38,711 nt of DNA from an uncultured Gammaproteobacteria bacterium (GTDB lineage: Bacteria; Patescibacteriota; Patescibacteriia; Patescibacteriales; GWC2-42-12). Both the position numbers and the translations under genes were made by a program. The stretch spans positions 1 through 38,711 of the forward strand of contig CAZLKB010000003.1 of NCBI GenBank assembly GCA_964560005.1, written 5' to 3'. Within the stretch, counting starts at the first letter, position 1, and each line of letters opens with the position of its first letter. The notes below the pieces were generated by a model that was given only the letters and a program-made list of their open reading frames with translations, ran no database searches and had not been told where the DNA came from. Below are positions 9,510 to 34,336 of the stretch, piece by piece.

Positions 9510-9518
9510 CAACAGTCT

Positions 9519-10835
9519 ATGTTAGACATTAAATTTATCAAGGAAAATAAAAGCAAGGTTATAGAGGCGGCCAAAAATAAAAAAGTGGAAATTAATTTGG
9601 AAAGATTATTTGAGCTTGATGACGAAAGAAAAAAAGTTCTGGCCAGAATAGAAGATTTGCGCAACGAAAAAAATCGGCAGGCGGATTCATTTAAAAGCGC
9701 TAAACCGTCCGGCGAGCAGCTGGCGCAAGGCAAAAAAATAAAAACCGACATTGTCAGTTTTGAAAAGCAGCTGGATGAGGTTAGTAAAGAATATCTAAAA
9801 TTACTCTACCAAGTTCCCAATATCGTTTCCGACGATACGCCGGCCGGTCCGGACGAATCATGCAATAAAATTTTGAGAAAAGTCGGAGAAATTCCAAAGT
9901 TTGATTTTCCGGCCAAAGACCATATGAAGCTGGGCCATCTTCATAAAATGATTGACACGGAAAAATCCGCCGCCGTCTCCGGCTTAAGGTTTAATTATCT
10001 TTTCGGCCAAGCCGTTTTTCTGCAAATGGCGATTATTCAATTCGTTTTTGAAACCCTGACTGACCCGAAAATTATAGCTAAGATTGCGAAAAAAACCGGA
10101 AATCCTTCCACTAAAACTTTTACTCCGGTAATTCCTCCGGTAATTGCCAAGGCGGAAATAATGAAAAAAATGGACCGGTTTGACCCGATTGACGACCGTT
10201 ATTATTTAAATTTGGACGACGCGCTCTTAATCGGCAGCGCCGAGCATACCATGGGCCCGCTTCACCTTAACGAATTGCTCAAGGAAGAAGATCTGCCCAT
10301 AAGATACATTGGCTATTCCACTTCTTTCAGGCGGGAAGCCGGCTCTTACGGAAAAGATACTACCGGCATTATGCGGCGGCACCAATTTGACAAGCTGGAA
10401 ATGGAAAGCTTTACTCTGCCGGAAAACGGCCTCAAGGAACAGGAATTTATCGTGGCCATACAGGAATATCTGGTTGAACAATTGGAAATTCCTTTCCAGG
10501 TGGTTTTAAAATGCACCGGGGACATCGGCGGCAAAGCCGACTTCCGCGCCATTGATATTGAGTGTTATCTGCCAGGGCAGGGGAGATACCGCGAAACCCA
10601 CACCTCGGATTACATGACCGATTTCCAGGCGCGGCGCCTAAACACCAGATTTAAAGGTAAAACCGGCGCCAAAGGCTTCGTCCACATGAACGACGCTACC
10701 GCTTTCGCCATCGGCCGGACTTTAATCGCCATCATGGAAAATCACCAGCAAGCCGACGGCTCAATCAAAATTCCCAAAGCTTTGCAGAAATATATACCTG
10801 GAGGAATGAAAATAATTGAGAATAAAGATAAATAA
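9519..10835 (+). CDS. serS: Serine--tRNA ligase
   Basis: N-terminal coiled coil, 'SFRREAGSYGKDT.G..R.HQF.K.E', 'H..NxTA.AIGR..IAIMENHQ'. Confidence 0.98.
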   Translation: MLDIKFIKENKSKVIEAAKNKKVEINLERLFELDDERKKVLARIEDLRNEKNRQADSFKSAKPSGEQLAQGKKIKTDIVSFEKQLDEVSKEYLKLLYQVPNIVSDDTPAGPDESCNKILRKVGEIPKFDFPAKDHMKLGHLHKMIDTEKSAAVSGLRFNYLFGQAVFLQMAIIQFVFETLTDPKIIAKIAKKTGNPSTKTFTPVIPPVIAKAEIMKKMDRFDPIDDRYYLNLDDALLIGSAEHTMGPLHLNELLKEEDLPIRYIGYSTSFRREAGSYGKDTTGIMRRHQFDKLEMESFTLPENGLKEQEFIVAIQEYLVEQLEIPFQVVLKCTGDIGGKADFRAIDIECYLPGQGRYRETHTSDYMTDFQARRLNTRFKGKTGAKGFVHMNDATAFAIGRTLIAIMENHQQADGSIKIPKALQKYIPGGMKIIENKDK

Positions 10836-10850
10836 TAAACCGAAAAAATT

Positions 10851-11927
10851 ATGCCAAAAAAAATAAATTTAGCGGTTATTTTCGGCGGTGAATCCAGAGA
10901 GCATGAAATTTCCTTAAAAAGCGCCAGCGCCGTAATTAACGCCTTAGATAAAAATAAATACAATGTCCTGCCTATCGCCATAACTAAAAAAGGCCAGTGG
11001 CTAATTGGCAAGAGGGGAGAGGCATACTTAAAAACTAACCTGGCTTTCGCTAACAAAGAAAACGGTGTTACGATTTCCCGGTCGCAAAAGCTCTTAGTAA
11101 AAAAATATCAAGAACAAACTATTACTAATTTCATGGAAGGGGAAGGAAATAATGAAAAAATTGACTTGGTGATTCCTCTGGGGCATGGCACTTTTATGGA
11201 AGACGGGCGCCTGCAAGGCATTTTAGACAGCCTGCATTTGCCTTATGTATTTTCCGGCTGCCTGGCCAGCGCCTTGGCAATGGACAAAAATTTGACCAAA
11301 ATTATCGCTAAAAATAGCGGTTTAACCCTTGCCTCCGATCTTATAATTAAGCGAGGAGAAAAATTCAGCTTAACTAAAATTATTAAAAAATTAGGCTGGC
11401 CGGTTGTAATAAAGCCCAATCAAGCCGGCTCTTCGGTCGGCGTTTCCATCGCCCGAAATATTAAAGAATTAAATAGCGGCATAAAGACCGCTTTAAGCTT
11501 GGGCCGAGAAGTCCTGCTGGAGCAATTCATTAGCGGTCGAGAACTAACCTGCGCGGTCTTCGGCAATAAGCCGCCGCGCGCTTTGCCGGTGGCGGAAATC
11601 ATACCGAAAGTTTCCGGCTGGTTTGATTATAAAGCTAAATATCTGCCTGACGGCAGCGCGGAAATCTGCCCGGCCGATATCCCGAAAACCATCAGTGAAA
11701 AAATTAAACGAGGAGCTTTAATCGTTTTTCAAGCTCTGGGCTGCAAGGACTTAGCCAGAGCGGATTTTATTTGGAATGAAAAAGACAATAAAATCTACTT
11801 TCTGGAAATTAACACCATACCCGGCATGACGGCGCAAAGCTTGGCGCCGAAGATAGCCAAAGCCTCCGGCCTGAATTTTAAGCAATTTATTGATAGTTTA
11901 ATCAGGCAAAGTTTAAAAAATATATAA
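10851..11927 (+). CDS. ddl: D-alanine--D-alanine ligase
   Basis: 'FGGESREHEISL', 'HG..MEDG..QG', 'GSSVG', 'FDYKAKY' and 'LEINTIPGMT' motifs. Confidence 0.97.
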   Translation: MPKKINLAVIFGGESREHEISLKSASAVINALDKNKYNVLPIAITKKGQWLIGKRGEAYLKTNLAFANKENGVTISRSQKLLVKKYQEQTITNFMEGEGNNEKIDLVIPLGHGTFMEDGRLQGILDSLHLPYVFSGCLASALAMDKNLTKIIAKNSGLTLASDLIIKRGEKFSLTKIIKKLGWPVVIKPNQAGSSVGVSIARNIKELNSGIKTALSLGREVLLEQFISGRELTCAVFGNKPPRALPVAEIIPKVSGWFDYKAKYLPDGSAEICPADIPKTISEKIKRGALIVFQALGCKDLARADFIWNEKDNKIYFLEINTIPGMTAQSLAPKIAKASGLNFKQFIDSLIRQSLKNI

Positions 11928-11951
11928 TTAACTAATTATCAAAGAAACATT

Positions 11952-12413
11952 ATGAAAGAAAAATTCGGTTCTGCACCAAACCCAGATCCTGAGCAATTTC
12001 CTGTCTCAGCCAGGGATCAAAAAATAAAACCTGAATTGGTTGCTAAACTGCGAGAATTATTATCTCCTTTAGATCAACCGCCGGAGGAAAAATTTGAGTG
12101 GACAGAAGATGAATTAAACCAAATAGTTGACGCTTTCACAAAATTTAATCTTGCCATTCGTCAAGGAATCCCCAAAGCACTATTTAACATGCTCGCTAAG
12201 CGGGCTGATGTAGGATTAGCGGAGGAAACATATAAAAATCATGCAATCTGGTATGCTCATGAAGGAATTGAATTTGCAACAGAAAGTGTGCGAGATTTTT
12301 CACATAAAGTAATAAAAGAAATAAAAAAAACAAAAAATTGGCAGCCACAGCAATATCATGATTGGTATGATGACAAAGAATCCTCAGGTGATGATCAAAT
12401 TACCAATAATTAA
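11952..12413 (+). CDS. Hypothetical protein between ddl and ftsQ
   Basis: 153-aa open frame with no family motif recognised. Confidence 0.6.
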   Translation: MKEKFGSAPNPDPEQFPVSARDQKIKPELVAKLRELLSPLDQPPEEKFEWTEDELNQIVDAFTKFNLAIRQGIPKALFNMLAKRADVGLAEETYKNHAIWYAHEGIEFATESVRDFSHKVIKEIKKTKNWQPQQYHDWYDDKESSGDDQITNN

Positions 12414-12428
12414 ATCTTGGCAAAACTT

Positions 12429-13307
12429 ATGAGATTTACCGGCCATAGTATTAATAAAAGCAGGCGACCGGGATTAAAAAGGGGGAAATTTATTTATTCA
12501 AAAAAGTCTTACTCCAATCCTTTTTTTAGAAATAAACGAGCTTCCATTTCCCGATCAAACGGTTTTATATCCAATAAAATCAAACTGGCTGTCTTTGCTT
12601 CTATTGTCGCCGTCTTAATTTTAGTTTGGCTGTTATTTTTTTCCAATCTCTTTAAAATTACTAAAATTGAAATAAGCGGAGTGGGGGATAATTTAGCCGC
12701 GGAGATAGAATTATTGGCTTACGACATAGCCGAAAACAAATTGGTGGGTAAAAATAATCTACTATTATACGATAAAAGCGAATTAGACCAAGCTCTAAAC
12801 AATAATTACTATTTGGAAGATTTAAAAATACAAAAAAAACTTTTTCATACCCTTAAAATATCTTTGGCAGAGAAGCGGCAAACCGCGGTTTGGCATGAAG
12901 ATGATAAATATTATTATCTTGATAACGATGGCCTGGCGATTAATCAGATAGATCCTTTGAATATCAACCGCCTAAACTATCCCGTAATAGAGAATTTAAC
13001 CGGCCTTAAGATAAAAGATCGGGAAGTTAACATCAATAAACCGACAATTGAATATATTTTGAGCCTTTTTAACGAGTTTAAAGACAAAAAACACGGTTTT
13101 GAAATAGAAAAATTTATTTTGGATAAGGACATCAATACGGTTAAGCTGGCGATTTTGGCTGGGCCTAAAATTTATTTTAATACCGAGGCATCCGCGGCCG
13201 AGCAAACATTATCGCTTAATCTGATTATTAAAGAAAAATTGAAAGATAGTTTTATGAGCAAGGAATATATTGACCTAAGATACGGCGAAAATATATATAT
13301 AAAATAA
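12429..13307 (+). CDS. ftsQ: Cell division protein FtsQ/DivIB-like (ATG start preferred over TTG 12417)
   Basis: Single TM, 'F.I..IEISG' POTRA start, 'P.TL.I...E' equivalent and C-terminal 'EYIDLRYG...Y'. Lies near ddl. Confidence 0.8.
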   Translation: MRFTGHSINKSRRPGLKRGKFIYSKKSYSNPFFRNKRASISRSNGFISNKIKLAVFASIVAVLILVWLLFFSNLFKITKIEISGVGDNLAAEIELLAYDIAENKLVGKNNLLLYDKSELDQALNNNYYLEDLKIQKKLFHTLKISLAEKRQTAVWHEDDKYYYLDNDGLAINQIDPLNINRLNYPVIENLTGLKIKDREVNINKPTIEYILSLFNEFKDKKHGFEIEKFILDKDINTVKLAILAGPKIYFNTEASAAEQTLSLNLIIKEKLKDSFMSKEYIDLRYGENIYIK

Positions 13308-18070: not shown

Positions 18071-19267
18071 TTATTTATTTACCGCCTGCCTAAACTTTTC
18101 CATAAATATTTTAGCCGCTTCCCGGCGAACCGGATGCACCGATTCAACTAATTTCTCCGCCTCTACCCAGCGCCAACCCGCGTGCTCCCAGTCATTAACT
18201 TTTATCTCGCTATCCTGGCCCATAAACTCGGCGATGAACAGGCTTTGCTTCTGCCCCTTATAACCGCGGGGATTTTTAGTTGAAAATCCATATTTATCAA
18301 GGCGCTTGTCAAATTTATATTTAAATAAATTTTTATAAGCCGCGATTGGTTGGAAATTTATGGTATTTATTTCTTCCTTCAATTCTCTGGCGCCGGCAAT
18401 CGCTAAGCTTTCACCGTCGGTTCCGCCCTGCGGCAGCTGCCAATGCCCTCTATTCCCCACTCGCTCCACAATTAATATTTTATATTTGCCAATCTCCCGC
18501 TTATAAAGCAGGCAAGCTATGTTCGGGCGATAGAACCAGCGTAAAATAAAGAAAAAATACAAAAAACGAAACGGAAACACGATTGTTGCTCGGAAAATTC
18601 TTCCGGCTCGCTTAGGCTGCTTAATTAATCGCCAAAGCCATTCCAATCCGATAAATCTTAAAATCTTTGGCGCCCGCCTGGCTCTACCGGTTAAAAAATC
18701 AAAACTGCCGCCGACCGATAACCCTAATCTGGCAGTTGGAATTTTCGCCAAATTATAATAAATAAATTTTTCTTGATAAGGCGCGCCCAGCGTACAAAAT
18801 ACAATATCCGGTTTAAACTGGTTTATCTTATAAACATCAACCGAGGCTTCGCGCTCAATCGCTTCAACATAAAACTCCAATTCGGGAAATTTTTCTGCTA
18901 CCGCTAATTTTATTTCTTCCGCGCCGGACAGTCCCCTCTTCCAGCTAAACACCGCCACTCTATATTTATTTTCTTCGGCTAATTTCAAGATGTCCAAAGT
19001 AATATCCGCTCCGGTAATCCGTCTAATATTTTTCCGAAAAAACCAACCGGCTAGTTTTAGCGCGATGCCGTCGGCCAGAGCCAGGTCGGCGTGGTTCAGG
19101 ATATACCATAATTCTTCGTGGTGGCGAGTGGCATGTAAAATTATTTCCGGATTTGGCGTAACCATTATATGCTGTTTCCGACCAAGTAAAAATTCCCTGA
19201 TTTTATCTAAAACTTCACACTTATTAATATTAGTAATATTTACGCCTAAAATATTGATTTTTTCCAT
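18071..19267 (-). CDS. WecB/TagA/CpsF glycosyltransferase fused to a C-terminal Nudix domain
   Basis: 'TPNPE', 'ADG', 'LGAPYQEKF', 'VGGSFDFL.G...RAP' and 'GLEWLWRL..QP.R', then 'HWQLPQGGTDGE.......RELKEE'. Confidence 0.88.
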   Translation of the reverse strand: MEKINILGVNITNINKCEVLDKIREFLLGRKQHIMVTPNPEIILHATRHHEELWYILNHADLALADGIALKLAGWFFRKNIRRITGADITLDILKLAEENKYRVAVFSWKRGLSGAEEIKLAVAEKFPELEFYVEAIEREASVDVYKINQFKPDIVFCTLGAPYQEKFIYYNLAKIPTARLGLSVGGSFDFLTGRARRAPKILRFIGLEWLWRLIKQPKRAGRIFRATIVFPFRFLYFFFILRWFYRPNIACLLYKREIGKYKILIVERVGNRGHWQLPQGGTDGESLAIAGARELKEEINTINFQPIAAYKNLFKYKFDKRLDKYGFSTKNPRGYKGQKQSLFIAEFMGQDSEIKVNDWEHAGWRWVEAEKLVESVHPVRREAAKIFMEKFRQAVNK

Positions 19268-23665: not shown

Positions 23666-23687
23666 TTAATGAAAGGTTGCCATCAAT

Positions 23688-23718
23688 AATATAGCCGCCG
23701 AATATCGGCGGCTATATT
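23688..23718. terminator. Bidirectional terminator between convergent genes
   Basis: Perfect 14-bp stem AATATAGCCGCCGA / TCGGCGGCTATATT. Confidence 0.85.
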
Positions 23719-23752
23719 TATATTTTACTATTTTACCGAAAGACTAAAGGTT

Positions 23753-26700
23753 TTACCGTTTCGCGCCCGAATAAGCGATTGCGCGCACGATGTCCCAATC
23801 AACGGCTGATACCGGAGCGCGCCGAAAGAAATGCTTATAGGCTAAAATCGCGGCTTTTTCCGAGTTTAAATTGCGCTGGCTCGGCCTTAAGCCGTAAGCG
23901 ATCACCGTCACGGCCGCGTTCTCATTGGCGTTGGCCATATTGGCGCCGCGGCCATAGACTTGCTTAAAGAAAATATTGGCTTGATTTTGCGCCTTGTCGC
24001 TGCGCTGGTTGGGCCATCTGCCATTAGCGATTTTTATCGCGTCTTGCCAGGTTTCCGGGCTATTTGGCAATTTGCCAAAAGCCGAGAGATAGGAATTTAA
24101 GACGCCGGCTCTTTCACCCGCGCCCAGCTTAACGGTTGACGGCGTGCCAAAATGAAGAAAATAAGCAATGGCATATTTATCCTGATTGGATAATGGGTTA
24201 GGACTTTTTTTACTGATTAAATCATAGAGAGCTTTAGTCGTCGCCGACAAGTCAACCGGCCGGTTATATTCAAAAACCGCGGCCGCGTCGGAAAAAATTT
24301 GTTCTAACTGCGTAAGCGCCGGGGCGGCAGCCGGCTCGGGATTATCAATTTTTTCCCCAAGGACTATAATGTCGCAGACTTTTGAACTGTCCAGCTGCTG
24401 CGCCGTAGTCAGAGTGCAGCCGGCCGGCAGGCTGGTTGAAGCCGTACGATATTGACGGCCGCCAACGCATAAACCCCAATCTCCGTATGTAACATTGGTA
24501 CAGTAAGTGGTCTGCGAACCTCCTCCACCACCACCACCACCACCACCTCCGCCACCACCACCACCACCTCCGCCACCACCGCCGCCTGATTGGGTGGTAG
24601 CGGAAACCTGGCTGGATTTAGCTGATATGTTATTAGATGCGTCATAAGCAGACACGGAATAAGTGTAAGCTGTGCCGGCAGCTAAACCGGTATCAGAGTA
24701 GCTATTGGCTGTTGAAGTGGCGACTTGAATGTTGTTTCTAAAAAATTTGTAGCCGGTTACGCCAATATTATCAGTTGACGCGCTCCAGCTCAAATTAATC
24801 TGAGAAGTTGAAATCACCGTTGCGGTTAGGTTGGCCGGTACGGACGGAGCGGTGCTGTCAAAACTGACTGTTACTATATAAGCTTGAGTTGAGTTATCAG
24901 CCGCCGTGACTGTATAGGTAACCGGATCAGTGAAATCCTGCAATGCTCCGGAGGCCGGACTAACTGAAGCCCCGCTAGAAGTCGCGATGGTCGGTGCTAG
25001 GGCTGTAACATCCGTTCCTAAAGGTACAGTTACAGCGATAGTGTGGGCAGTTTCATCAATTACGCCGGTTGCGGCCGGAGAAGCGAAGCTGAAGGCGGTA
25101 ATGGCCTTGGCCGGATTAGCCGCTACTGTTACCGTAACGACATAAGCTTGAGTTGAACTGTCAGCCGCAGTAACTGTATAGGTGACCGGATTGGTAAAAT
25201 TTGTGGCTGCGCCTGAAGCCGGGCTGACCGAGGCGCCGGTAATTGTAATAGTAGGTGTCAGCGAAGTCACGGCCGTGCCGAAAGGCACGCTAACCGCGAT
25301 GGTTTTCGCGCCTTCGTTGATTACGCCGGTTGCGGCCGGAGAAGCGAAGCTGAAGGCGGTAATGGCCTTGGCCGGATTAGCCGCTACTGTTACCGTAACG
25401 ACATAAGCTTGAGTTGAACTGTCAGCCGCAGTAACTGTATAGGTGACCGGATTGGTAAAATTTGTGGCTGCGCCTGAAGCCGGGCTGACCGAGGCGCCGG
25501 TAATTGTAATAGTAGGTGTCAGCGAAGTCACGGCCGTGCCGAAAGGCACGCTAACCGCGATGGTTTTCGCGCCTTCGTTGATTACGCCGGTTGCGGCCGG
25601 AGAAGCGAAGCTGAAGGCGGTAATGGCCTTGGCCGAGCTTTGCGGAGCGGTATAAGTAACTGTGATTGAATCAGTCGCCGTATTGCCGGCCGCGTCGCGC
25701 GCGGTAAAAGTAATTATGTTATCGCCGCTGATTAAACCCACGCTGGCCGTCCAGTCGGTCGTGCCGCTGGAGGAACCGCTCAGGCCGCGGTTGCTTACCC
25801 AGGTAACTGAAGTAACGCCAACGTTATCTGCAGCCGTGCCGCCGATGGCCAGAGGCGTAACCGCGGTACTATAGGTTGAATTGCTGGTTGGCGAAGTAAT
25901 GGAAATTCCCGGATTAACATTATCAACAATCGTTACTGTGGCAGATTCCCAGGTAGCGGGTATTAAATCATAAGACGGCCAGGAGACATATAAAGCGCTA
26001 AAAACCTCATCAAATGTAAAATTATTACTGCCGATTGAGTCGGCGGTAAAATTTAAAACAATTATATCGGCTGAACCATTAACTGCTTGCGGTGAATCAA
26101 TATTTGAATTGGCTAATACATTCACGCAACTTGGAGTTATATTAAAATCTATATCATAGCAATCACCGAGATAAACATCCCAGCCGCTATCAATCATGTC
26201 TTGCGGTATATTAAAATCAATGTAACTTAATTTTGTATTATCGTAATTAATGTTTACATACAGGTTATCTAAATCAGTAACATTGCCGACCCTTAAAGTA
26301 ACGGTAAGACTATCTCCTAAATTTACATTTTGGCTGGCCGGATTCAATGAAACAACCGCCAGAGCTGGCGCGTAAGTTATGGTTACTGTTTCGGCCGCGG
26401 TATTGCCGGCCGTATCGGTAGCGGTTACCGTAATGACATTATCGCCAACCGACAAAGGCGCGTCAAAAGTCCAGTCGCCGGAACTTAAAGTGGCTGTTCC
26501 GCTGCCGCCCTGGTCGTTGGACCAGGCGACTTGATCGACCTCAACATTATCCGCGGCCGTGCCGGTGATAGTAACCGGCGAGGCATCGGTTGAACCCGCC
26601 GCCGTGCTGATGGCTAAAATCGGATCAATCGCGTCGGCGGCCGCCACCGTGATTGCCTGGCTTAGGCTGGCGTTAAGGGAAGCTTCTTCGGATGTGGAAG

Positions 26701-27145
26701 TATCATAATATTCAATATCTACAAAAGTTAATAAAGTGGCGCCGGCGCCGGCTGCGGTAAAATTCAGCCTGGCTAAAATTGTGGGCGTGCTTACCTCCAA
26801 AGGCCCGCAGCCTTGACGAAAGACCTGGACAAAAATAGTACCGGTTTCCGCGTTATACGGATCCGACCAGGCTACGGCGCCTCCGGTACAGCCTCCGGAA
26901 AGCGATCCGGCCGATACTTCCACGCTGGTTAAATCAATTAATGAGCTATCAAAGCTGATTTCAAAGTTTCCGTTATAAAAAGTAGTGTCAGCGGATTGCG
27001 CCACGATATCAGCCGTAAAGTTCTGGCCAACCACCAAGTTTTGATGGTTTAAATTAAAACTTAAATCAGTTGCCGCTGAAACTGATTTAGGCAGAATAAA
27101 AAATAAAGATAACAGAAAAAATGAGATTACTATTGATTTTTTCAT
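23753..27145 (-). CDS. Large secreted modular surface protein (two cohesin-like, Ig-like, three beta-repeat and FN3 domains, poly-Gly linker, Cys module, C-terminal domain)
   Basis: Signal peptide, 'V..G..FT..I......I.FD...L...V' cohesin-like pattern twice, 'ITGTAADNV.V..V.W' Ig repeats, 'AKAITAFSF' repeats and 'PSVPANLTA...INLSW.ASTDN.GV.GY' FN3. Confidence 0.85.
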   Translation of the reverse strand: MKKSIVISFFLLSLFFILPKSVSAATDLSFNLNHQNLVVGQNFTADIVAQSADTTFYNGNFEISFDSSLIDLTSVEVSAGSLSGGCTGGAVAWSDPYNAETGTIFVQVFRQGCGPLEVSTPTILARLNFTAAGAGATLLTFVDIEYYDTSTSEEASLNASLSQAITVAAADAIDPILAISTAAGSTDASPVTITGTAADNVEVDQVAWSNDQGGSGTATLSSGDWTFDAPLSVGDNVITVTATDTAGNTAAETVTITYAPALAVVSLNPASQNVNLGDSLTVTLRVGNVTDLDNLYVNINYDNTKLSYIDFNIPQDMIDSGWDVYLGDCYDIDFNITPSCVNVLANSNIDSPQAVNGSADIIVLNFTADSIGSNNFTFDEVFSALYVSWPSYDLIPATWESATVTIVDNVNPGISITSPTSNSTYSTAVTPLAIGGTAADNVGVTSVTWVSNRGLSGSSSGTTDWTASVGLISGDNIITFTARDAAGNTATDSITVTYTAPQSSAKAITAFSFASPAATGVINEGAKTIAVSVPFGTAVTSLTPTITITGASVSPASGAATNFTNPVTYTVTAADSSTQAYVVTVTVAANPAKAITAFSFASPAATGVINEGAKTIAVSVPFGTAVTSLTPTITITGASVSPASGAATNFTNPVTYTVTAADSSTQAYVVTVTVAANPAKAITAFSFASPAATGVIDETAHTIAVTVPLGTDVTALAPTIATSSGASVSPASGALQDFTDPVTYTVTAADNSTQAYIVTVSFDSTAPSVPANLTATVISTSQINLSWSASTDNIGVTGYKFFRNNIQVATSTANSYSDTGLAAGTAYTYSVSAYDASNNISAKSSQVSATTQSGGGGGGGGGGGGGGGGGGGGGGGSQTTYCTNVTYGDWGLCVGGRQYRTASTSLPAGCTLTTAQQLDSSKVCDIIVLGEKIDNPEPAAAPALTQLEQIFSDAAAVFEYNRPVDLSATTKALYDLISKKSPNPLSNQDKYAIAYFLHFGTPSTVKLGAGERAGVLNSYLSAFGKLPNSPETWQDAIKIANGRWPNQRSDKAQNQANIFFKQVYGRGANMANANENAAVTVIAYGLRPSQRNLNSEKAAILAYKHFFRRAPVSAVDWDIVRAIAYSGAKR
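24518..24586 (-). repeat. Microsatellite encoding 23 consecutive Gly
   Basis: 69 nt of (CCA/CCT/CCG)n on plus. Confidence 0.95.
25059..25635. repeat. Apparently perfect 261-bp tandem repeat (about 2.2 copies) within the surface protein gene
   Basis: ATTACGCCGGTTGCGG recurs at 25059, 25320 and 25581. No differences found by eye. Confidence 0.9.
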
Positions 27146-27228
27146 ATTTTTTTATTATAATCTTAGTTAAATTTGATAATTAGGCTAACTTTAAATAAAA
27201 ATTTAATATAAATAATTATTATCTAGAT

Positions 27229-27257
27229 ATATTAACATACATTAATTATCTTGTCAA
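27229..27257 (-). promoter_or_regulatory. Sigma70 promoter for the surface protein
   Basis: TTGACA-17 nt-TAATAT with an extended TG. Confidence 0.7.
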
Positions 27258-27360
27258 GGGTAGGTGATTTATCCAGGAACTTCAGGAATAATCTGCGGTA
27301 AATGCACTAAATTTATTAAAAACTGTTTAATTTAAGCTATTTTTTAAATTATTATTATAT

Positions 27361-27395
27361 AAAAAAGCCGTGGATGATTATCAATCTTCCACGGC
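27361..27395 (-). terminator. Intrinsic terminator
   Basis: GCCGTGGA/TCCACGGC stem with a minus-strand U tract. Confidence 0.75.
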
Positions 27396-27402
27396 GCGAT
27401 GA

Positions 27403-28497
27403 TTACTCCGGTTCCTTAATTAAAGGGTCTTCGGCCAGATAGTTTTGAACCATTCTAGCCATGGACGCGCAATTTTTAGCGCAACCGGAGAGATGGCCGG
27501 CCAAACGTCTTGCATCGGCGTCTTCATACGCCTTAAGCATGGCCTTGAAGCGAAACTGGCTTACCTTTGCCCAGGCGTAAAACCATTCATCCGCGATTTT
27601 AGCCTTGCCGATTAAAGACTCAAACTCCTTTTCCAAAAGCCTGATGTCCGTGGCTAAGAGGACCTGAGCCTTATCTGCTCCTTCCTTAATTAAACGGCGC
27701 GCCCGGGCAACGCTAAGCTGGCGGCGACAGATTTCCCGCGCCAGCTTAATCTGAAGTTCGGCTTGGCCAATTAACGCGGTTAATTCTATGGCGTTGGAGG
27801 TTGAGAGTTTTGTCCCCGAAGATGCCGACATCAGCTTTAGAGTTTCTGGCTCCAAATCAGGAATCGCTAGGCGCTTGCTCACCCACCAATAACCGAAACC
27901 GAAGGCTCTGGCAATTGTGGTCTGGCTAATTCCCATGGATACGGCTTGCTTAAGGGCTCGCGCCAGCTCAAGCTCCGTAATCGTCTTAGCCCGATAGCTT
28001 GTTACCGCGGAATTCAGGAAGGCTTGGGCTTGCTGGGCTTTTTCAATCAGCTCGTTGACTATTTCCTGGCCGGAAAGTTGATTAGCCGACTTATCGGCTT
28101 GCTTATCCCGGGTTTTTTGCCAGATTAAGCGGCGCGCTTGTTTTGAGTTTAGATTTTGCCGGCAAATTTCTTTCGCAGTCTCTATTTGCAGCTTAGGCGT
28201 ACCGATGAGGTTGGTTAAGCTTACCGCATTGTCAAGAGTCAGTCTTTTGCCTGACGGCGCTTTCATCAGGGCCAATGTCTCTTGCTCTAACCCTAAAATA
28301 ACCAGATGACAATTGACCCAAAGTTTAGATCTATCAAAGGCGGCCGCGATCGCCCTTGTGCTCATGCCCATATCATGAAGATCCTTAATTCTATAGGATA
28401 AATCAAGGTCAGAGATTGTGTTTCCAAAGTATGCCGTAACGGCGGATGAAAGCAGCCGCTTTACTTTAGCGGCTAACATAGCTTCACGTTTTTTCAT
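27403..28497 (-). CDS. ParB-derived protein with two tandem HTH DNA-binding domains and no CTPase domain (start re-called at 28497)
   Basis: AGGAG 4 nt before ATG 28497. Internal duplication 'ISDLDLSYRIK..MGMSTRAIAAAF.....WVNCHL' / 'ITELELARALK..MGISQTTIARAF.....WVSKRL', which aligns by eye with the HTH region of 29740-30657. Confidence 0.75.
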   Translation of the reverse strand: MKKREAMLAAKVKRLLSSAVTAYFGNTISDLDLSYRIKDLHDMGMSTRAIAAAFDRSKLWVNCHLVILGLEQETLALMKAPSGKRLTLDNAVSLTNLIGTPKLQIETAKEICRQNLNSKQARRLIWQKTRDKQADKSANQLSGQEIVNELIEKAQQAQAFLNSAVTSYRAKTITELELARALKQAVSMGISQTTIARAFGFGYWWVSKRLAIPDLEPETLKLMSASSGTKLSTSNAIELTALIGQAELQIKLAREICRRQLSVARARRLIKEGADKAQVLLATDIRLLEKEFESLIGKAKIADEWFYAWAKVSQFRFKAMLKAYEDADARRLAGHLSGCAKNCASMARMVQNYLAEDPLIKEPE

Positions 28498-28607
28498 AAT
28501 TCTCCTATTAGCTAAATTTTTCAAAGATCATGGTTTATTTCGTAACTTTATATCTATAACACATTATTCACTCTATGTCAACTATATGTCAATATGAAGT
28601 TTCTTTA

Positions 28608-28642
28608 AATAAAAAAACCTCGCGTTTTGCCGCGCGAGGTTT
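28608..28642 (-). terminator. Intrinsic terminator after the AAA+ activator
   Basis: AAACCTCGCG/CGCGAGGTTT stem with a minus-strand U tract. Confidence 0.8.
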
Positions 28643-28678
28643 GTGGTTTATTTGTTTTTAAAGGATTGCTCTCCCCCT

Positions 28679-29743
28679 TTAGAGTTTAATCCCGAACGCT
28701 TCAATTTTTCTATAAAGCGTTTGCCGGCTGATGCCGAGTCTTTTGGCGGTTTGAAATTTATTACCTCCGGTCACCCTTAGCATTTTCACAATCGCCCCTC
28801 TTTGTTCTCGTTCAAGAATATTCACCCCCTCTGCCTCTGCCTCCTGCTCCGAGACTTTTTCTTGCTCGGTTACTTCAGGAGTGATGCGTAAGTGGCAAAC
28901 ATCTATCAGATGATTATTAGCCAGAAGCACGCCTCGGCGAACCGTGTTTTCCAGCTCGCGGACATTGCCGGGCCAGCTGTACCTCATTAGCGCGTCCAGC
29001 GCCTGTTCGGTGAAACCATTCGGCTCCTTATTTTCCTCCGCCGCCCAGAAACGCATATAGCCTTCGGCCAGCGGTAGAATATCGTCCGGCCTATCTCTAA
29101 GCGGAGGAATTTTAACGATCATGCCGTTTAGGCGGTGCATTAAATCCGGCCGCAGCTTTCCTGTTCGTATCGCCTCGTCTAACGGGCGATTGGTTGAGGA
29201 GATTACCCGGCAGTTAACCTTGTATTCAACCGTGCCGCCCACCGGACGGACTCGGCCTTCCTGCAGGACTCGCAAGAGTTTAGCCTGCGCGGCCAGATGC
29301 ATTTCCGAAACCTCGTCCAGATACAGCGTGCCGTTTTCGGCTTCCCGAAACAACCCTCTGCGTTCTGCGGTGGAACCGGTGTATGCACCCTTGAGCGAAC
29401 CGAATAGCTCGCTTTCAATCAATTGCTCCGGCAATGCCGCGCAGTTGACGCCGATGAACATTCTATTGGCTCGGATACTGTATTGATGGATAGCGCGGGC
29501 AATAACTTCTTTGCCCGTGCCTGATTCCCCGATGACTAAAACCGGGATGTCGCTACACCTTAGCTTTAGCGCTGTCTGAACGATTTCCCGCATCAACTCG
29601 CTCTCCAGCACTACCGGTTTATCGCGGTGCAGCTTGAGCCCTGGCTCTGCCGGCTGATCGCCCTGGCCGTTGCCGTTGCCGCCGTTGTTGTTGCCGCCGT
29701 TGCCGTTGCAGCGATTTCTGGAAATTTCTACGATTCCATTCAT
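28679..29743 (-). CDS. Sigma54-interacting (bEBP/NtrC-family) AAA+ regulator with Fis HTH and no sensor domain
   Basis: GESGTGKE, ESELFG, GAYTGS loop, LYLDEV, 'RPDLMHRLN', WPGNVRELEN and 'GNKFQTAKRLGISRQTLYRKI'. Confidence 0.93.
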   Translation of the reverse strand: MNGIVEISRNRCNGNGGNNNGGNGNGQGDQPAEPGLKLHRDKPVVLESELMREIVQTALKLRCSDIPVLVIGESGTGKEVIARAIHQYSIRANRMFIGVNCAALPEQLIESELFGSLKGAYTGSTAERRGLFREAENGTLYLDEVSEMHLAAQAKLLRVLQEGRVRPVGGTVEYKVNCRVISSTNRPLDEAIRTGKLRPDLMHRLNGMIVKIPPLRDRPDDILPLAEGYMRFWAAEENKEPNGFTEQALDALMRYSWPGNVRELENTVRRGVLLANNHLIDVCHLRITPEVTEQEKVSEQEAEAEGVNILEREQRGAIVKMLRVTGGNKFQTAKRLGISRQTLYRKIEAFGIKL

Positions 29744-30657
29744 ATTATTTCCTTTCGGCCAGCAGACCCGTTTGAGGCGACCGGCTGATTAATCCATTCC
29801 ATGACGGCGGTTAAGTTTTTTACCGCCGCCTTGAGCTTAGAGGCGACTTCTCTTACTTGTTCAGCCTGGCCGGCCGCGATAATCTCTTTGAATTCCGCCT
29901 CCGGCATGCTGGCCAGCTTATCCAGCCTTGCCACCACGCTTCCAATCGTCAGCGCGAATTCCCTAAACAAGGCCGTCGGCTTTTTCTGCCGCTTGGAAAG
30001 GCAGGTTTGCCTGCCCGTGGCTTGAGTTGCCAAGCGGCGGACATTTCCAACTGACAACCGCCTTTCAAGAGTCGCCTTAGCCAAGGCGACTTTATCGCGA
30101 TCAGGCGCTTTCATTAACTCCAAGAATTGGGATAAAGCCAGCCTATGATCCTTGGGTGTTTCCGGACCAATGAGCTTTTGCAGTTCCAGAGGCGCTTTGA
30201 GTATTTGCAGTCTTTTCCAAACCCAGCCTTGGGTTTGCCCGACCCTCTTCGCCGCTTGGCTCTGGGACAGGTCGCGTTCGTCCATCAGCCTTTTCAGGCC
30301 ATGCGCCACATCCCAGTCCGTAAGCGAATCCCTGGCGATATCTCCAACAAAGGCGATTTCAAACTGCTCCATATCGTCAGCCACTCTAACTACCAAGCAC
30401 AGGACTTCGGTTAATCCAAGTATCTGGGCCGCGTGCCAGCGATTTTCTCCGTTGACCAGCTTATACTTAACGCCGTCAACTTCCTTTTCCAATTCCTTTA
30501 CCATGAGCGGTTCGTTGATCCCGCCCGTCTCCCGGATAGAATCAACCAGGCCTTGACGAAATTCCGGGTCAACAATCGTCCTGGGCTGGTTTTTGTTGGG
30601 CCTGATAAAGCTGACTTTAATCATCTGCATCCGTACTTCTCTATTTATGTCTTTCAT
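29740..30657 (-). CDS. ParB/RepB/Spo0J-family protein (CTPase fold + HTH)
   Basis: 'IRPNKNQPR', 'L..SI...G...P..V', 'GENRWHAA' and HTH 'LSQSQAAKRVGQTQGWVWKRL'. Stop overlaps the next start (ATGA). Confidence 0.9.
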   Translation of the reverse strand: MKDINREVRMQMIKVSFIRPNKNQPRTIVDPEFRQGLVDSIRETGGINEPLMVKELEKEVDGVKYKLVNGENRWHAAQILGLTEVLCLVVRVADDMEQFEIAFVGDIARDSLTDWDVAHGLKRLMDERDLSQSQAAKRVGQTQGWVWKRLQILKAPLELQKLIGPETPKDHRLALSQFLELMKAPDRDKVALAKATLERRLSVGNVRRLATQATGRQTCLSKRQKKPTALFREFALTIGSVVARLDKLASMPEAEFKEIIAAGQAEQVREVASKLKAAVKNLTAVMEWINQPVASNGSAGRKEII

Positions 30658-30736
30658 TCCTTGCCTTGCCTTTCTTTTATTTTGTTTTTTTGGTTGTTGT
30701 TATTTGTTTTTGTTTGTTTGATTTGTTCGATAAATT

Positions 30737-30788
30737 ATTACCGCAGCTTTTAAACTCTCTTTTTAGCGAATCTAAAAGCTGCGGTAAT
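30737..30788. repeat. Perfect 16-bp inverted repeat in the leader of the ParB operon
   Basis: ATTACCGCAGCTTTTA (30737-30752) and TAAAAGCTGCGGTAAT (30773-30788), 20-nt spacer. Confidence 0.85.
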
Positions 30789-30938
30789 TAGCCTAATTTT
30801 TAAGGTACTAGCTTTAACTTTCTTTATGTCGTAAAAAATTTTTTCATGACTATATCATTCCGCTCTTACTGCGAATTCTATCATGAAACATAAAATAACA
30901 CCAAAATACTCCGAAAAAGGCACAAATTCTGACTTTTC

Positions 30939-30967
30939 TTTATACCATAAGATTTAATCTGCGTCAA
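30939..30967 (-). promoter_or_regulatory. Sigma70-type promoter for the ParB-bEBP operon
   Basis: TTGACG-17 nt-TATAAA with an extended TG. Confidence 0.5.
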
Positions 30968-30989
30968 GCCGGAGGTAAAAATACCCCCC

Positions 30990-31058
30990 TTGACTAATTT
31001 TAATTTTTATATTAAGATATAAAGTTAATTTTTGGTGAACTTTTATTTGTGGTATAAT
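30990..31058 (+). promoter_or_regulatory. Two candidate sigma70 promoters for the structured leader and FN3 gene
   Basis: TTGACT-17-TAAGAT (30990-31018) and TG-G-TATAAT (31050-31058). Confidence 0.55.
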
Positions 31059-31091
31059 AAGTCTGCCAAAAACGCACATTAAAATAAATCC

Positions 31092-31260
31092 AGGCGCCTT
31101 CTCCGAGGGTATTTACCCTCCGGGAAGATAAAAACTTCCATTCATCCAGCGCCAAACCGGTGCTGGGTTCAGTCCCGCGGCAGAGTCCGCGGGGCATTCC
31201 GGAAGGTGCTAAATACAATTTTGGGTATGATGCCGAAAATAAACTAGCGGCATCGCGCCT
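31092..31260 (+). ncRNA. Candidate multi-branched structured RNA (unassigned motif)
   Basis: Closing helix AGGCGC/GCGCCT encloses five hairpins, with a possible 6-bp loop pseudoknot. Folded by eye only. Confidence 0.45.
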
Positions 31261-31309
31261 AAACAGCAACAAAAAAACAAACAACAAAAGAAAGAAAGAA
31301 AGGCAATCA

Positions 31310-32575
31310 ATGAAAAAAATAATAATTCCCTTGGTCATGGTTATCCTGGCGTTCTGCACCCTAACCAGGGTGACGGCCGCGGAAAGATCCGTCACTTTGG
31401 CTTGGGATCCAAGCCCGTCAACAAATTTAGCTGGCTACAATGTTTACTACGGCGCAGGTTGCGGGCAATATACTAATATAGTCAACGCCGGAAACACCAC
31501 TACGGTAACAATCCCCGGCCTAGTTCAAGGTGTGACTTATTTCTTCGCCGCCACGGCGTACGACACAAGCGAGCTGGAAAGCGATTTTTCCAACGAAATA
31601 GTCTACACCGTTCCCGAAGAGAACTCTTTGGACGAATCATACTTGGCTTCGGCCGAGTATTCAATTGACCATGCCAACGGCTCGATCGTCGGCCTGATAG
31701 AGGCTTTGCCGGCCGACCCTAGAGAGGTGGGCTGGGCTAAAGACCTGGGTCCAGTGGCGGGTGGACAGACGGTAGGCGTCAGCGCGCGCATGTTTTACAG
31801 CGATAGCGTCAGCGCGCCGATTTCGCTCTATGTCGCGGATAGTCTGACCGGCAACTGGCTTAGCCCGGAGAGAGTGGTTTTTATTGACTACACCTACGGG
31901 AGTAATGCCGTAGAAATGATCGTCAACAACTCCTGCGAGGCTCCGAGACTCTATGTGTCAACCGGACACAGAACAGGAGTCTATGAGTTTCAGCGGATTC
32001 AGGTGTCGGTCAACACACCGGCAATTAATCCGACCACGGATCTGTACCTGCGCCAGCTCTTGGTTAAACAGCTGACCGGCCTTTATTCGGCTGAATGGGT
32101 CTGGGTGCCGGCGGCCGGCTCGCAAGGGTATGTGGTAAGGCTAGCTCTTACCAGGAGTGAAATTGAAAAAGGAGCGGCCGGCAATCTGCTTTACCAGCAA
32201 ACTTTGTCCGCCGGCCAAACAAGCTACCGGCGCAACATAGACGCCACCCTTTACAACGGCGTCTACCTGTCCGTCGCTTCATTAAGCGGCGGCGTAGAAA
32301 GCGCTCCCTGGATCACCTGGTATCTGCCGGGAGATATATATAACACGGCGGATGAGGATATTCCGCCGTTATGCTTCCAGGCGCTGGTTGACGCGACGGA
32401 TGTCAATTACGCTTACACCGGCTACACCTCGCTCCGACGGGTGCCGGCCTTAACGCCGGGCCTACCCGCGGGACGCGAGGAACGGACCGATATTGACAAC
32501 AACACTTACGCCGGACGCGTAAGCGACTATAGCTTTATCAGAAGCCAAAATCTGAATGCCAGGAGAATGAGATAA
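31310..32575 (+). CDS. Secreted fibronectin type III protein with a possible C-terminal dockerin-like region (start re-called at 31310)
   Basis: GAAAGG before ATG 31310, signal peptide MKKIIIPLVMVILAFC, FN3 'SVTLAWD.....LAGY.VYYG...TYFFAATAYD..ES.FSNE', and paired Asp-rich 'PGDI...VDATD' / 'DIDNN...D' segments. Confidence 0.8.
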   Translation: MKKIIIPLVMVILAFCTLTRVTAAERSVTLAWDPSPSTNLAGYNVYYGAGCGQYTNIVNAGNTTTVTIPGLVQGVTYFFAATAYDTSELESDFSNEIVYTVPEENSLDESYLASAEYSIDHANGSIVGLIEALPADPREVGWAKDLGPVAGGQTVGVSARMFYSDSVSAPISLYVADSLTGNWLSPERVVFIDYTYGSNAVEMIVNNSCEAPRLYVSTGHRTGVYEFQRIQVSVNTPAINPTTDLYLRQLLVKQLTGLYSAEWVWVPAAGSQGYVVRLALTRSEIEKGAAGNLLYQQTLSAGQTSYRRNIDATLYNGVYLSVASLSGGVESAPWITWYLPGDIYNTADEDIPPLCFQALVDATDVNYAYTGYTSLRRVPALTPGLPAGREERTDIDNNTYAGRVSDYSFIRSQNLNARRMR

Positions 32576-32590
32576 ATCAAACTCCTGCCC

Positions 32591-32624
32591 AGCCACAAAC
32601 AAGAATGTTTGTGGCTCTTTTTTT
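32591..32624 (+). terminator. Intrinsic terminator
   Basis: AGCCACAAAC/GTTTGTGGCT perfect stem plus T tract. Confidence 0.88.
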
Positions 32625-32639
32625 AGCCGAACTAGCGGT

Positions 32640-32648
32640 TGTGGATAA
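32640..32648 (-). promoter_or_regulatory. Single perfect DnaA box
   Basis: TGTGGATAA on plus equals TTATCCACA on minus. Intergenic and isolated. Confidence 0.4.
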
Positions 32649-32785
32649 ACTTATAATATTGTATAATAAAATCATATCATCTAAAATTATTAACATGTAT
32701 CAGGACTTGAGCTTTTGGCATGTTTCGCTATTTCAGTTTGATCTTGAAATAGCCGTAGAGCTAAGCCATGATATAATCTATTACT

Positions 32786-34249
32786 ATGAAGTTAGCGCGA
32801 CCGGCCATAATTATTTTCCTTTGCTTGATCGTCTTCTTAAGCTTTGAGATAAGCTCCGCCCGCGCCGAAGGGTTTGATCCTAATAATATCATCAGCGATT
32901 TGGAAATCCTTGATTATAGCGCCATGGATTTAAATGATATTCAAAAATTTTTGGAAAACAAGGGCAGTTACCTGGCTGATTATTCCTGCTCTGACGCCAG
33001 CGGCGTTACCAGGAAGGCGTCGGAAATAATTTATAATGCGGCGGTAAAAAGCTATGATTGCGATGGAGCTGGTTTAAGCGATAACCCAACCGATGAAGAA
33101 AGAGCTCTAAAATGCCGAAAAGTCACCATCAACCCGAAATTCCTCTTGGTGCTTCTGCAAAAAGAGCAAAGTTTAATTGAAGAGTCCTCGCCCAGCCAAA
33201 AAAACTTGGATTGGGCGACCGGCTACGGCTGCCCGGATTCGGGCGGCTGCAATCCCCGCTGGCAGGGCTTTGGCAAGCAAATTAATTCCGCAGCTTTGCA
33301 ATTCAGAGATTATTTGGATCGGCCGCAACTTTATACCTACCGAGCGGGTGAGACTTATACGGTTAAAAATACCAATCAGCCTGATTCTACCGTAACGCCG
33401 GCGAACCAGGCTACGGCCGCGCTTTACAACTATACGCCGCATGTTTATAACGGCAATTATAACTTTTATAAAATTTGGCGCAGATACTTCGCTAAAGCCT
33501 ACCCGGACGGCTCGCTTTTGCAGGTTGACGGCGAAGCCGGGGTTTGGCTTCTGCAGAACGGGCTGAAGAGGCCATTCCTATCTAAGAGCGCTCTAGCCTC
33601 CCGTTTTGATATTAACAAGATCATTAAAATAAATAAATCTGATTTAGATAAATACGAGACCGGTGTGCCGATTAAATTCCCCCAATACTCTTTAATTAAA
33701 TCGCCGCGCGGAACTATTTTCCTGTTAGTCGATGATAAAAAACGCGGTTTTACTTCCATGGAAGCGTTTCGCAGAATGGGCTTTAACCCCAGCGAGGTCA
33801 TAAACGCCAGCTGGGATGATATTAATTATTACGCTGACGGCACTCCGATTACGGCCACCTCCACCTATCCGACCGGCGCTTTACTGCAAAATAACAAAAC
33901 CGGCGGTATTTATTATGTAATTGAAGGAATAAAATCCCCGCTAGTTGACAGAATATTTTTAACCACCGCCTTTAAAAATAAAAAAATTATAAAAGTATCG
34001 CCGGCCGAACTTGAGCAATATCCGGCTATAAAACCGTATTTATTCGCCGACGGAGAACTGCTGAAAACTAAAGATTCTCCTTACACCTATGTAATTTCCG
34101 GCGGCAAGAAACTGCTTATATCATCGGATAAAATATTCAATAGCCTTGGCTTTAAAACGGAAAATATCATAATCGTGCCTTCAAGTCTATTGTATTTATA
34201 CGAAGCCGGCGCGCCGATAACGGAAGCCGTGGTCAATGACGAGCCATAG
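32786..34249 (+). CDS. Secreted protein with a conserved N-terminal domain (possibly lysozyme-like) and C-terminal surface repeats
   Basis: Signal peptide, 'INPKFLLVLLQKEQSLI...ATGYGCPD...GFGKQINSAA', then repeated 'DGSLL...V.L...G.KR.F' units. Preceded by TG-A-TATAAT 8 nt upstream. Confidence 0.75.
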   Translation: MKLARPAIIIFLCLIVFLSFEISSARAEGFDPNNIISDLEILDYSAMDLNDIQKFLENKGSYLADYSCSDASGVTRKASEIIYNAAVKSYDCDGAGLSDNPTDEERALKCRKVTINPKFLLVLLQKEQSLIEESSPSQKNLDWATGYGCPDSGGCNPRWQGFGKQINSAALQFRDYLDRPQLYTYRAGETYTVKNTNQPDSTVTPANQATAALYNYTPHVYNGNYNFYKIWRRYFAKAYPDGSLLQVDGEAGVWLLQNGLKRPFLSKSALASRFDINKIIKINKSDLDKYETGVPIKFPQYSLIKSPRGTIFLLVDDKKRGFTSMEAFRRMGFNPSEVINASWDDINYYADGTPITATSTYPTGALLQNNKTGGIYYVIEGIKSPLVDRIFLTTAFKNKKIIKVSPAELEQYPAIKPYLFADGELLKTKDSPYTYVISGGKKLLISSDKIFNSLGFKTENIIIVPSSLLYLYEAGAPITEAVVNDEP

Positions 34250-34279
34250 ATAAGGATGCAAAATGTAAATCTCAAAGTT

Positions 34280-34336
34280 AAAAATGCTAGCTCCGCTAGC
34301 ACCCCGCAGATGCGGGGTCATTGCAGAGCAATGACA
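34280..34336 (+). repeat. 57-bp triple-hairpin repeat, copy 2, within an AT-rich quasi-palindrome
   Basis: Identical to 20885-20941. Confidence 0.92.

Follow-up and report, generated by a model that had tools for sequence, protein, structure and literature searches.

ParB-fold proteins are now also seen as nucleotide-controlled switches for genes, with KorB, VirB and BisD as examples, and their known partners are small repressors or a factor specific to one integrative and conjugative element (ICE). Here we describe a gene for a ParB-like protein that overlaps the gene for a receiver-less NtrC-type bacterial enhancer-binding protein (bEBP, hereafter the activator). The pair lies in a stretch of 38,711 nucleotides from an uncultured bacterium (assembly GCA_964560005.1, contig CAZLKB010000003.1), which we call the window and use at its full length. 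Regulation by a ParB-type protein together with a partner has been seen before (PMC11790492, PMC13584720, PMC12409273). KorB of plasmid RK2 combines a ParB fold with a helix-turn-helix (HTH), controls transcription rather than partition, and works with a small partner regulator, KorA or TrbA (PMC11790492, PMC13584720); it also gives the best TM-score among the Foldseek matches of the window protein (0.55 on query, 0.77 on target). KorB is a proven cytidine triphosphatase (CTPase) clamp and a repressor with small repressor partners, it uses a compact palindromic site, and it is plasmid-borne together with IncC, a ParA. In contrast, the window protein is next to an AAA+ sigma54-type partner, has degenerate box II and box III motifs and a different C-terminal domain, and shares only 17-19% identity with KorB.

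BisD of ICEclc (Pseudomonas putida) offers a second comparison, as a ParB-like protein that activates promoters with a dedicated partner, BisC, carries an extra non-ParB domain, and binds nucleotide in a GxxR-dependent manner (PMC12409273). Unlike what we see here, BisD binds cytidine triphosphate (CTP), hydrolyses it and spreads over ~50 kb of the ICE, and BisC is not an AAA+ bEBP; the homology of BisD to the window protein was compared at the ParB core only. VirB of Shigella is a ParB-type CTP-binding protein repurposed to regulate horizontally acquired surface and virulence genes (PMC10770331). It acts by itself against H-NS with no activator partner known, whereas no H-NS-like gene was seen here. 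On the activator side, the resemblance is to PspF and HrpR/S, which likewise consist of AAA+ and HTH domains without a sensor domain, so that control must come from the expression level or from a partner protein. The PspF-PspA and HrpR/S-HrpV pairs work through partner proteins. The window activator differs in that its nearest relatives are NtrC-type response regulators and that its candidate partner, in contrast to PspA and HrpV, adopts a ParB fold. Finally, a PNAS 2025 survey reported ParB-CTPase folds fused to Sigma70 domains, fusions that bind adenosine triphosphate (PMC12704722). These tie the ParB fold to RNA-polymerase initiation factors, as do four of the distant relatives described below, which adjoin sigma70-family genes; they are single-chain proteins, and the survey covers domain fusions rather than neighbourhoods and, by a term search, mentions no pairing with sigma54 or an enhancer-binding protein (PMC12704722). 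An earlier note on this DNA knew of no described ParB-bEBP pairing, and we likewise found no description in the searchable literature; what is already known are the partnered ParB-type regulators and the ParB-fold/Sigma70 fusions. A paper on Gifsy-1 and RtcR, considered as a precedent, concerns a ParA-like rather than a ParB protein and is irrelevant.

The pair is a real, coupled operon. Both open reading frames (ORFs) were recovered as the earlier note had described them, the ATGA overlap of stop and start was read directly, and an AAGGA Shine-Dalgarno sequence lies 6 nucleotides 5' of the activator ATG (Table 1). Positions 25606-34301 (8,696 bp) recur at 100% identity in a Logan assembly of run SRR12133404 that was made separately, possibly from the same reads, so the junctions around the pair are probably not a chimera. 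The earlier note's statement that one terminator follows the pair held for the terminator itself; the unit does not end there, as it goes on with a separately promoted third cassette gene. No ParA, replicase, integrase or conjugation domain appeared in Pfam scans of the window's larger ORFs, eight of which have no family at all, which agrees with the absence of parA, replicase and integrase that had been claimed. The remainder of the window is housekeeping by Pfam, with aminoacyl-tRNA synthetases, ClpB, Ddl, GreA, def/fmt and glycosyltransferases.

Table 1. Features of the ParB-like/activator locus and its surroundings, in window coordinates.
Feature	Position	Strand	Content or basis
ParB-like gene, 305 residues	30657..29740	minus	ParB N-terminal fold, HTH_ParB and family-specific three-helix C-terminal region (residues 227-290)
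Receiver-less NtrC-type bEBP (activator) gene, 354 residues	29743..28679	minus	45-residue N-terminus with Gly/Asn run, AAA+ sigma54-interaction domain, lid, Fis-type HTH_8
ATGA stop/start overlap (translational coupling)	29740..29743	minus	Direct sequence reading
Intrinsic terminator 3' of activator gene	28642-28615	minus	Terminator scan and direct reading
Gene 3, 364 residues, 'headless' ParB paralog	28497..27403	minus	Two HTH_ParB domains (Pfam), no N-terminal nucleotide-binding domain
Sigma70-type promoter-like site of gene 3	28563..28592	minus	TTGACA-18-AATAAT, 11/12 matches
Terminator-like hairpin and T-run 3' of gene 3	27361..27394	minus	Direct reading; not in terminator scan list
Inverted repeat, two GCTAAYTAYCGYAGC-type half-sites (ATTACCGCAGCTTTTA / TAAAAGCTGCGGTAAT)	30737..30788	minus	ParB-like operon leader
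Conserved block GTACCTTAAAAAT	30796..30808	minus	Just 5' of inverted repeat
Sigma70-type promoter TTGACG-17-TATAAA	30939..30967	minus	Near-identical in L086
CA-rich leader before ParB-like start codon	30658..30735	minus	A+C 0.85 in last 60 nucleotides
Extra TTACCGCAG half-site	27293..27301	minus	~40 nucleotides 5' of the -35 of the sigma70-type promoter of the surface-protein gene
Divergent fn3-domain secreted protein, 421 residues from ATG	31310..32575	plus	Pfam
Surface protein, 1,130 residues	23753..27145	minus	DUF5018 repeats, Ig-like and fn3 domains (Pfam)
Island, ~9.1 kb, between clpB and orf487	23666..32785		Absent from syntenic genomes, higher GC

To place the ParB-like protein in a family, we ran an exhaustive HMMER search over 1.84 billion representatives, which returned a subfamily whose members align over their full length, C-terminal helices included. 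This search overturned the singleton status that word-indexed searches had suggested for the ParB-like protein, the activator and gene 3; a scan of metagenome contigs with a five-sequence alignment picked up generic ParB motifs and returned canonical ParBs. The adjacency is not unique to this genome, so that the refuting case of a unique adjacency named in the earlier note does not hold: the neighbourhood search gave three more loci with a ParB-like relative and a receiver-less activator. Locus L082 (P0148, ParB-like identity 42%) repeats the three-gene order of the window: a 364-residue activator, 52% identical and with the same Gly/Asn run, begins 18 nucleotides downstream and is followed by a gene 3-like fragment (44%). 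At L083 (P0150, 38%) a 343-residue protein with three DnaA_C-like HTH repeats lies on the opposite strand and is followed by a 416-residue receiver-less activator, 50% identical to that of the window. The third, L174 (P0165, 29%), has a convergent 485-residue activator with an AAA+ domain beginning at residue 25, and genes for secreted, fn3 and giant proteins lie next to it. The related loci come from groundwater and have a gene content like that of the candidate phyla radiation (CPR). The host of the window is probably of this CPR/Patescibacteria type too, many such genomes being found among its ClpB relatives, although the names recorded for syntenic contigs contradict one another.

The activators also carry a signal of shared descent with their neighbours. 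In a neighbour-joining tree of 43 NtrC-type cores, which took in L082 and L083 of the three related pair loci, the activators of the window, L082 and L083 form an exclusive clade with 92% bootstrap support, and those of the window and L082 group at 98%. The ParB-like identities fall in the same order (41-42% between window and L082, 31-38% between window and L083), so both genes appear to have diverged together. Four more distant members (loci L085, L090/L091, L172/L173 and L258) have a sigma70-family gene directly adjoining the ParB-like gene, and overall a regulator directed at RNA polymerase, either an activator or a sigma70-family gene, is adjacent or one gene off in 8 of the 10 informative loci; the contigs of P0149 and P0153 are too short for their neighbours to be judged.

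Several of these relatives have features of their own. The sigma70-family neighbours, which comprise regions r2 and r4, accompany ParB-like members at 27-30% identity, one of them overlapping by 4 nucleotides, and parallel the published ParB-fold/Sigma70 fusions. At L172 (positions 1-12903; GCA_016198585.1, JACQII010000016.1) the sigma70-family and ParB-like genes sit within an archaeal-looking stretch with exosome Rrp4/41/42, ribosomal L37ae, RPAB4 and prefoldin genes, for which an insert of bacterial type into a DPANN-like genome, or else a fault of assembly or binning, could account. Members P0152, P0155 and P0158 (e.g., L176 2385-3686) are extended at the C-terminus by ~130 residues, among which an HPD motif resembles a J domain. 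The DnaA C-terminal-like HTH modules of L083 (9000-10031, minus strand, three repeats) score below the Pfam cut-off, and the L174 activator (3120-4577, minus strand) by eye ends in a DnaA_C-like module in place of HTH_8, Pfam reporting neither.

The domain content of the ParB-like protein is clear at its N-terminal side and distinctive at its C-terminal side. It matches Pfam ParB_N (1.4e-16) and HTH_ParB (5.8e-09) and, above its cut-off, TIGR00180 parB_part; outside the subfamily the best matches are Spo0J-type ParBs, which share 38-41% identity with its N-terminal two-thirds. The AlphaFold2 model (predicted local distance difference test, pLDDT, 90.5) fits the structures of ParB, Noc and KorB along ~200 residues with a Foldseek probability of 1.00, while the three C-terminal helices lie beyond the reach of the PDB matches listed, in which ParB, Noc and KorB extend up to ~220 aligned columns. 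The C-terminal dimerisation domain PF23552 gave no Pfam match in this protein, and the LG-R/K-GL motif for ParA binding, as defined in PMC12704722, is absent from its N-terminus, MKDINREVRMQM.

Its nucleotide pocket is kept in part. Box I retains QPR (NQPRT at residues 23-27), P25 and R26 being invariant and Q24 nearly so among 24 family members, and the GxxR core of box II is retained as well, with G70 and R73 invariant across these members. When aligned to solved ParB and Noc structures, the GERRxR of box II reads GENRWH, with the loss of two of the three arginines. In box III, VENLQR of the M. xanthus ParB aligns with VGDIAR of the window protein, placing Gly and Asp at the catalytic Glu and Asn positions; relatives read SDVLR, SDVLK or DNVQR, and the closest have Ser and Asp there. 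This Glu and Asn serve CTP hydrolysis and gate closure in the ParBs of B. subtilis and C. crescentus. The earlier note's label of 'CTPase' is thus not supported, as only the phosphate-binding residues of GxxR and QPR are left, and we consider nucleotide binding plausible and CTP hydrolysis doubtful from these residues. The GxxR arginine is required for nucleotide binding both in BisD (PMC12409273) and in the test proteins of the survey (PMC12704722), and the nucleotide specificity of the ParB-CTPase fold is unpredictable from sequence or by AlphaFold 3 (PMC12704722).

The activator is a near-canonical NtrC-type protein without a receiver. Pfam assigns it Sigma54_activat (PF00158, 2.6e-61, 206.6 bits, residues 46-209), AAA_lid_14 and HTH_8 (PF02954, 1.6e-11, residues 311-350), with neither a PF00072 receiver nor any other Pfam domain in residues 1-45, and the DNA 5' of its start is ParB-like coding sequence in another frame. 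Alignment to NtrC1 shows Walker A (GESGTGKE), Walker B (LDEV), the R-finger region (RPDLMHRL), sensor I and sensor II (GNVRELEN) to be intact, so the earlier description of a sensor-less activator with an Asn/Gly-rich N-terminus and intact ATPase motifs was accurate. The L1 loop that contacts sigma54 reads GAYTGS instead of GAFTGA. GAYTGA occurs 18 times among the 120 closest sequences returned and loops ending in -TGS 11 times, the window's own included, frequencies that would fit an essentially intact contact loop. The corresponding loops are GSYTGS in L082, GSFTGS in L083 and GSFTGA in L174, with the aromatic-Thr-Gly core kept, and Walker A and B, sensors I and II, the R-finger and G-x-[FY]-T-G-x are all retained in the four cassette activators at 35-52% identity. 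With the ATPase motifs and a near-canonical contact loop kept, the activator probably still works with sigma54-RNA polymerase, and the retention in all four suggests the same for the other three. Outside the cassette the window activator is closest to NtrC response regulators of the Verrucomicrobiota type (53-54% identity), nearly all of which have a PF00072 receiver, and the PspF model of NCBIfam scores 250 bits. The Gly/Asn run stems from a 15-nucleotide tandem repeat present three times (29666-29712, minus strand), which could be prone to slippage; the similar run in L082 suggests that the low-complexity linker has been retained.

The leader of the ParB-like operon is conserved along with the genes. 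A promoter of the form TTGAC[AG]-17-TATAAA upstream of the ParB-like gene and a GTACYTTAAAAAT block are common to the window, L082 and L086-L088. The inverted repeat, built on the 15-nucleotide motif GCTAAYTAYCGYAGC, stands at the same place in these relatives, and its pairing is kept through two compensatory (double-sided) changes across three distinct sequences. At L083 the 15-mer occurs once, as an exact copy just 5' of the activator gene, where ~2e-4 chance matches were estimated for the locus; this single copy argues for recognition of the sequence. All four exact copies of the TTACCGCAG 9-mer in the window lie within 26752-30787. The repeat could be bound by a protein, fold as an RNA hairpin, or do both.

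CA-rich leaders are found in the window only at the ParB-like and fn3 genes, with A+C of 0.80-0.85 over the 60 nucleotides 5' of the start codon versus 0.30-0.62 for the other 22 genes. They lie at window 31262-31309 (plus strand) for the fn3 gene, at 272-304 in L082, at 646-680 in L086 and at ~5775-5812 in L174, a recurrence that suggests shared translational or post-transcriptional control. The leader of the fn3 gene (31065-31312, plus strand) is GC-rich, with a predicted four-way junction, a minimum free energy of -88.9 kcal/mol and z = -6.7 against shuffles, and on this folding it may be an unknown cis-regulatory RNA; Rfam has no family for it or for the inverted repeat, returning only sub-threshold miRNA and CrcZ noise.

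We favour, at about an even chance, the reading that these genes form a conserved transcription-control cassette inherited as a unit: a ParB-fold HTH protein and a coupled receiver-less NtrC-type activator, joined in the window and L082 by the headless paralog, and with a tandem-HTH accessory protein often taking part. The cassette is read from a conserved sigma70-type promoter of its own, and the gene for the secreted fn3 protein diverges from it. In this reading the ParB-like protein, possibly with the headless paralog, would recognise GCTAAYTAYCGYAGC sites; the inverted pair in its own leader would serve auto-control or loading, with a further half-site 5' of the surface-protein promoter, and the ParB-like protein and the activator together would set the expression of the neighbouring surface and secreted-protein genes. 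The ParB-like protein would thereby stand in for the control that the missing sensor domain normally gives, in parallel with KorB and KorA/TrbA or BisD and BisC; by this analogy, it probably binds the conserved sites and supplies the activator's missing control. A bolder and unlikely generalisation is that CPR-type bacteria have a ParB-fold nucleotide-switch subfamily that acts as a dedicated control subunit for RNA-polymerase initiation factors, replacing the receiver of an NtrC-type activator here and partnering an alternative sigma factor in sister lineages, and that after loading at the parS-like inverted repeat it would gate the activator or deliver it to surface-protein promoters.

The pairing, if true, would join two large, well-studied regulator families that were unconnected before, and it suggests one specific way in which activators lacking a receiver may be kept under control. 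In ultra-small, host-dependent bacteria, whose regulation is almost unstudied, it points towards a circuit devoted to surface and secreted fn3 proteins. If the ParB-like protein is indeed a control subunit, this would be a new way of regulating a sigma54-type activator and a new use of the ParB fold, and should the hosts lack rpoN, a near-canonical bEBP would be acting without sigma54. Since the module is small (two to three genes and a defined 15-nucleotide site), it is directly testable in vitro or in E. coli.

Several observations weigh against this picture. The ParB-like/activator pairing is seen at four loci only, all of them uncultured metagenomic contigs, and two loci of the subfamily (L084 and L176) show no visible partner. 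The tree groups three long branches, which could partly reflect long-branch attraction. The arms of the inverted repeat are spaced variably (~36 nucleotides centre to centre in the window versus ~30 in L082), and G-U pairs favour a sense-strand RNA hairpin in two of three loci, the antisense being more stable in the third; the repeat could thus be an RNA element and not a protein site. On the sigma54 side, no -24/-12 promoter (GG-N10-GC) scores 11 or 12 of 12 at any cassette locus, and the best matches, 10 of 12, fall inside coding regions (window and L174). Likewise, the 2.1 Mb searched contained no RpoN box, with the other 227 kb of the 266-kb source contig outside that search. The targets of the activator may therefore lie elsewhere. 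The form TGGCAC-N5-TTGC, allowing at most one mismatch, is also missing from the window, and the searchable literature had nothing usable on sigma54 in CPR.

Alternative accounts differ mainly in how they link the two proteins. The earlier note proposed a sliding or bridging ParB clamp; in the specific form that this clamp depends on CTP, loads at the inverted repeat and then physically gates the activator or delivers it to distant sigma54 promoters, the mechanism seems to us improbable. The fold and domain order do match the clamp-forming ParB, Noc and KorB, the residues invariant or nearly so (G70, R73, P25, R26 and Q24) include the GxxR arginine needed for nucleotide binding in BisD and the survey proteins (PMC12409273, PMC12704722), sensor domains are missing from the activators at all four loci, and the repeat provides a candidate loading site. 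However, the substituted residues in boxes II (GENRWH) and III (Gly/Asp, or Ser/Asp in the closest relatives) and the lack of a detectable PF23552 domain speak against a canonical clamp, the candidate site is a spaced inverted pair of variable spacing and not a compact parS palindrome, and distant sigma54 promoters are not known. Alternatively, the two genes may be co-transcribed yet independent, the ParB-like protein being a local autorepressor or anti-silencer of the island, and the activator an expression-controlled, constitutively active protein for sigma54 genes elsewhere. We regard this as rather unlikely, while acknowledging that much would fit: the operon's own sigma70-type promoter with the repeat downstream is how an autorepressor is commonly arranged, the level of expression can by itself control activators without a receiver, as in truncated bEBPs, no local sigma54 promoter was found, and distant relatives adjoin other regulators, the sigma70-family genes. 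Such independence is hard to square with tight linkage kept at four loci and co-divergence of both genes over 40-50% sequence divergence, or with a recurring link to RNA-polymerase-directed factors in particular, which mere co-location hardly explains.

Two further accounts take the ParB-like protein as a maintenance protein. That it is the remnant of a partition or maintenance system from an integrated plasmid, ICE or phage, with the activator as hitch-hiking cargo, is very unlikely. The compositionally distinct island would suit such an origin, as would distant full-length relatives (23-27% identity) on IMG/VR viral contigs, one of them in a clear phage with the portal gene on one side and the Mu F gene on the other, and an L086 cassette promoter placed ~250-300 nucleotides after a tRNA-Arg gene. 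Yet the larger ORFs of the window carry no ParA, replication, integrase or conjugation domain by Pfam, flanking direct repeats and the ParA-binding motif are both absent, and on its visible side the L083 cassette is flanked by the housekeeping genes TruB, LeuRS and YceG. The possibility that the protein is simply the ordinary chromosomal Spo0J/ParB of this organism, the other refuting case named in the earlier note, has a vanishingly small chance, although its best matches outside the subfamily are of Spo0J type and TIGR00180 is matched above cut-off. The gene sits on an island missing from syntenic genomes, with no parA domain found in the window, and the protein lacks the ParA-binding motif, has degenerate boxes II and III and a different C-terminal region, and belongs to a distinct subfamily tied to activators or sigma factors. 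In our favoured reading it is not a partition protein, and an ordinary Spo0J is effectively excluded. A phage-module origin of the close subfamily was also considered and set aside, as the viral-contig scan gave distant members only (the 23-27% relatives just mentioned), with no activator or sigma gene nearby. The tRNA region of L086, the P0149 locus (172-244), comprises tRNA-Arg(CCG) and a second tRNA-like 3' half, not called by ARAGORN, and could be an integration site.

The favoured cassette includes gene 3, whose second half is paralogous to the ParB-like protein in its DNA-binding and C-terminal part, at 23% identity to residues 84-296 of that protein. Gene 3 is 44% identical to the fragment 3' of the L082 activator, and the word-indexed search gave no other homolog. 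Around the cassette lie genes for surface and secreted proteins. The fn3 domain of the divergent protein shares 52% identity with the fn3 protein next to the L174 ParB-like gene and 47% with its counterpart at L176; at L176/L177 (P0152) the secreted, fn3 and giant proteins of L174 have homologs encoded next to the ParB-like gene, and no activator is visible there. The 1,130-residue surface protein is likely cargo of the cassette and a possible target. Its internal DUF5018 repeats are nearly identical to one another, it contains a stretch of 24 consecutive glycines, and the Logan contig ends inside its gene, probably because of these repeats.

The whole group lies on the island, whose GC content is 0.484 versus 0.403 in the rest of the window (~0.60 versus 0.49 at third codon positions). 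The island is delimited by syntenic contigs from a genome-contig scan with ClpB: in L002 and L006 the orf487 homolog comes directly after clpB with no island in between, and the flanking order of M23 peptidase, GluRS, WecG, ClpB, LigB, def and fmt is kept. Neither flanking direct repeats nor mobility genes were found at the island. Its absence from the syntenic genomes and its composition indicate that it is lineage-specific and probably horizontally acquired, so the cassette probably arrived in this genome on the 9-kb island together with large surface-protein genes. The syntenic metagenome-assembled contigs L002, L004 and L006, at ~31-60% amino-acid identity and with the same gene order, are recorded as Udaeobacter, Binatia and Gammaproteobacteria; these names conflict, and at least two must be wrong. 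Outside the island, one gene (18071-19267, minus strand) joins a WecG/TagA-type glycosyltransferase to a NUDIX domain, and a NUDIX domain also lies within the LeuRS gene of L083, both unusual fusions.

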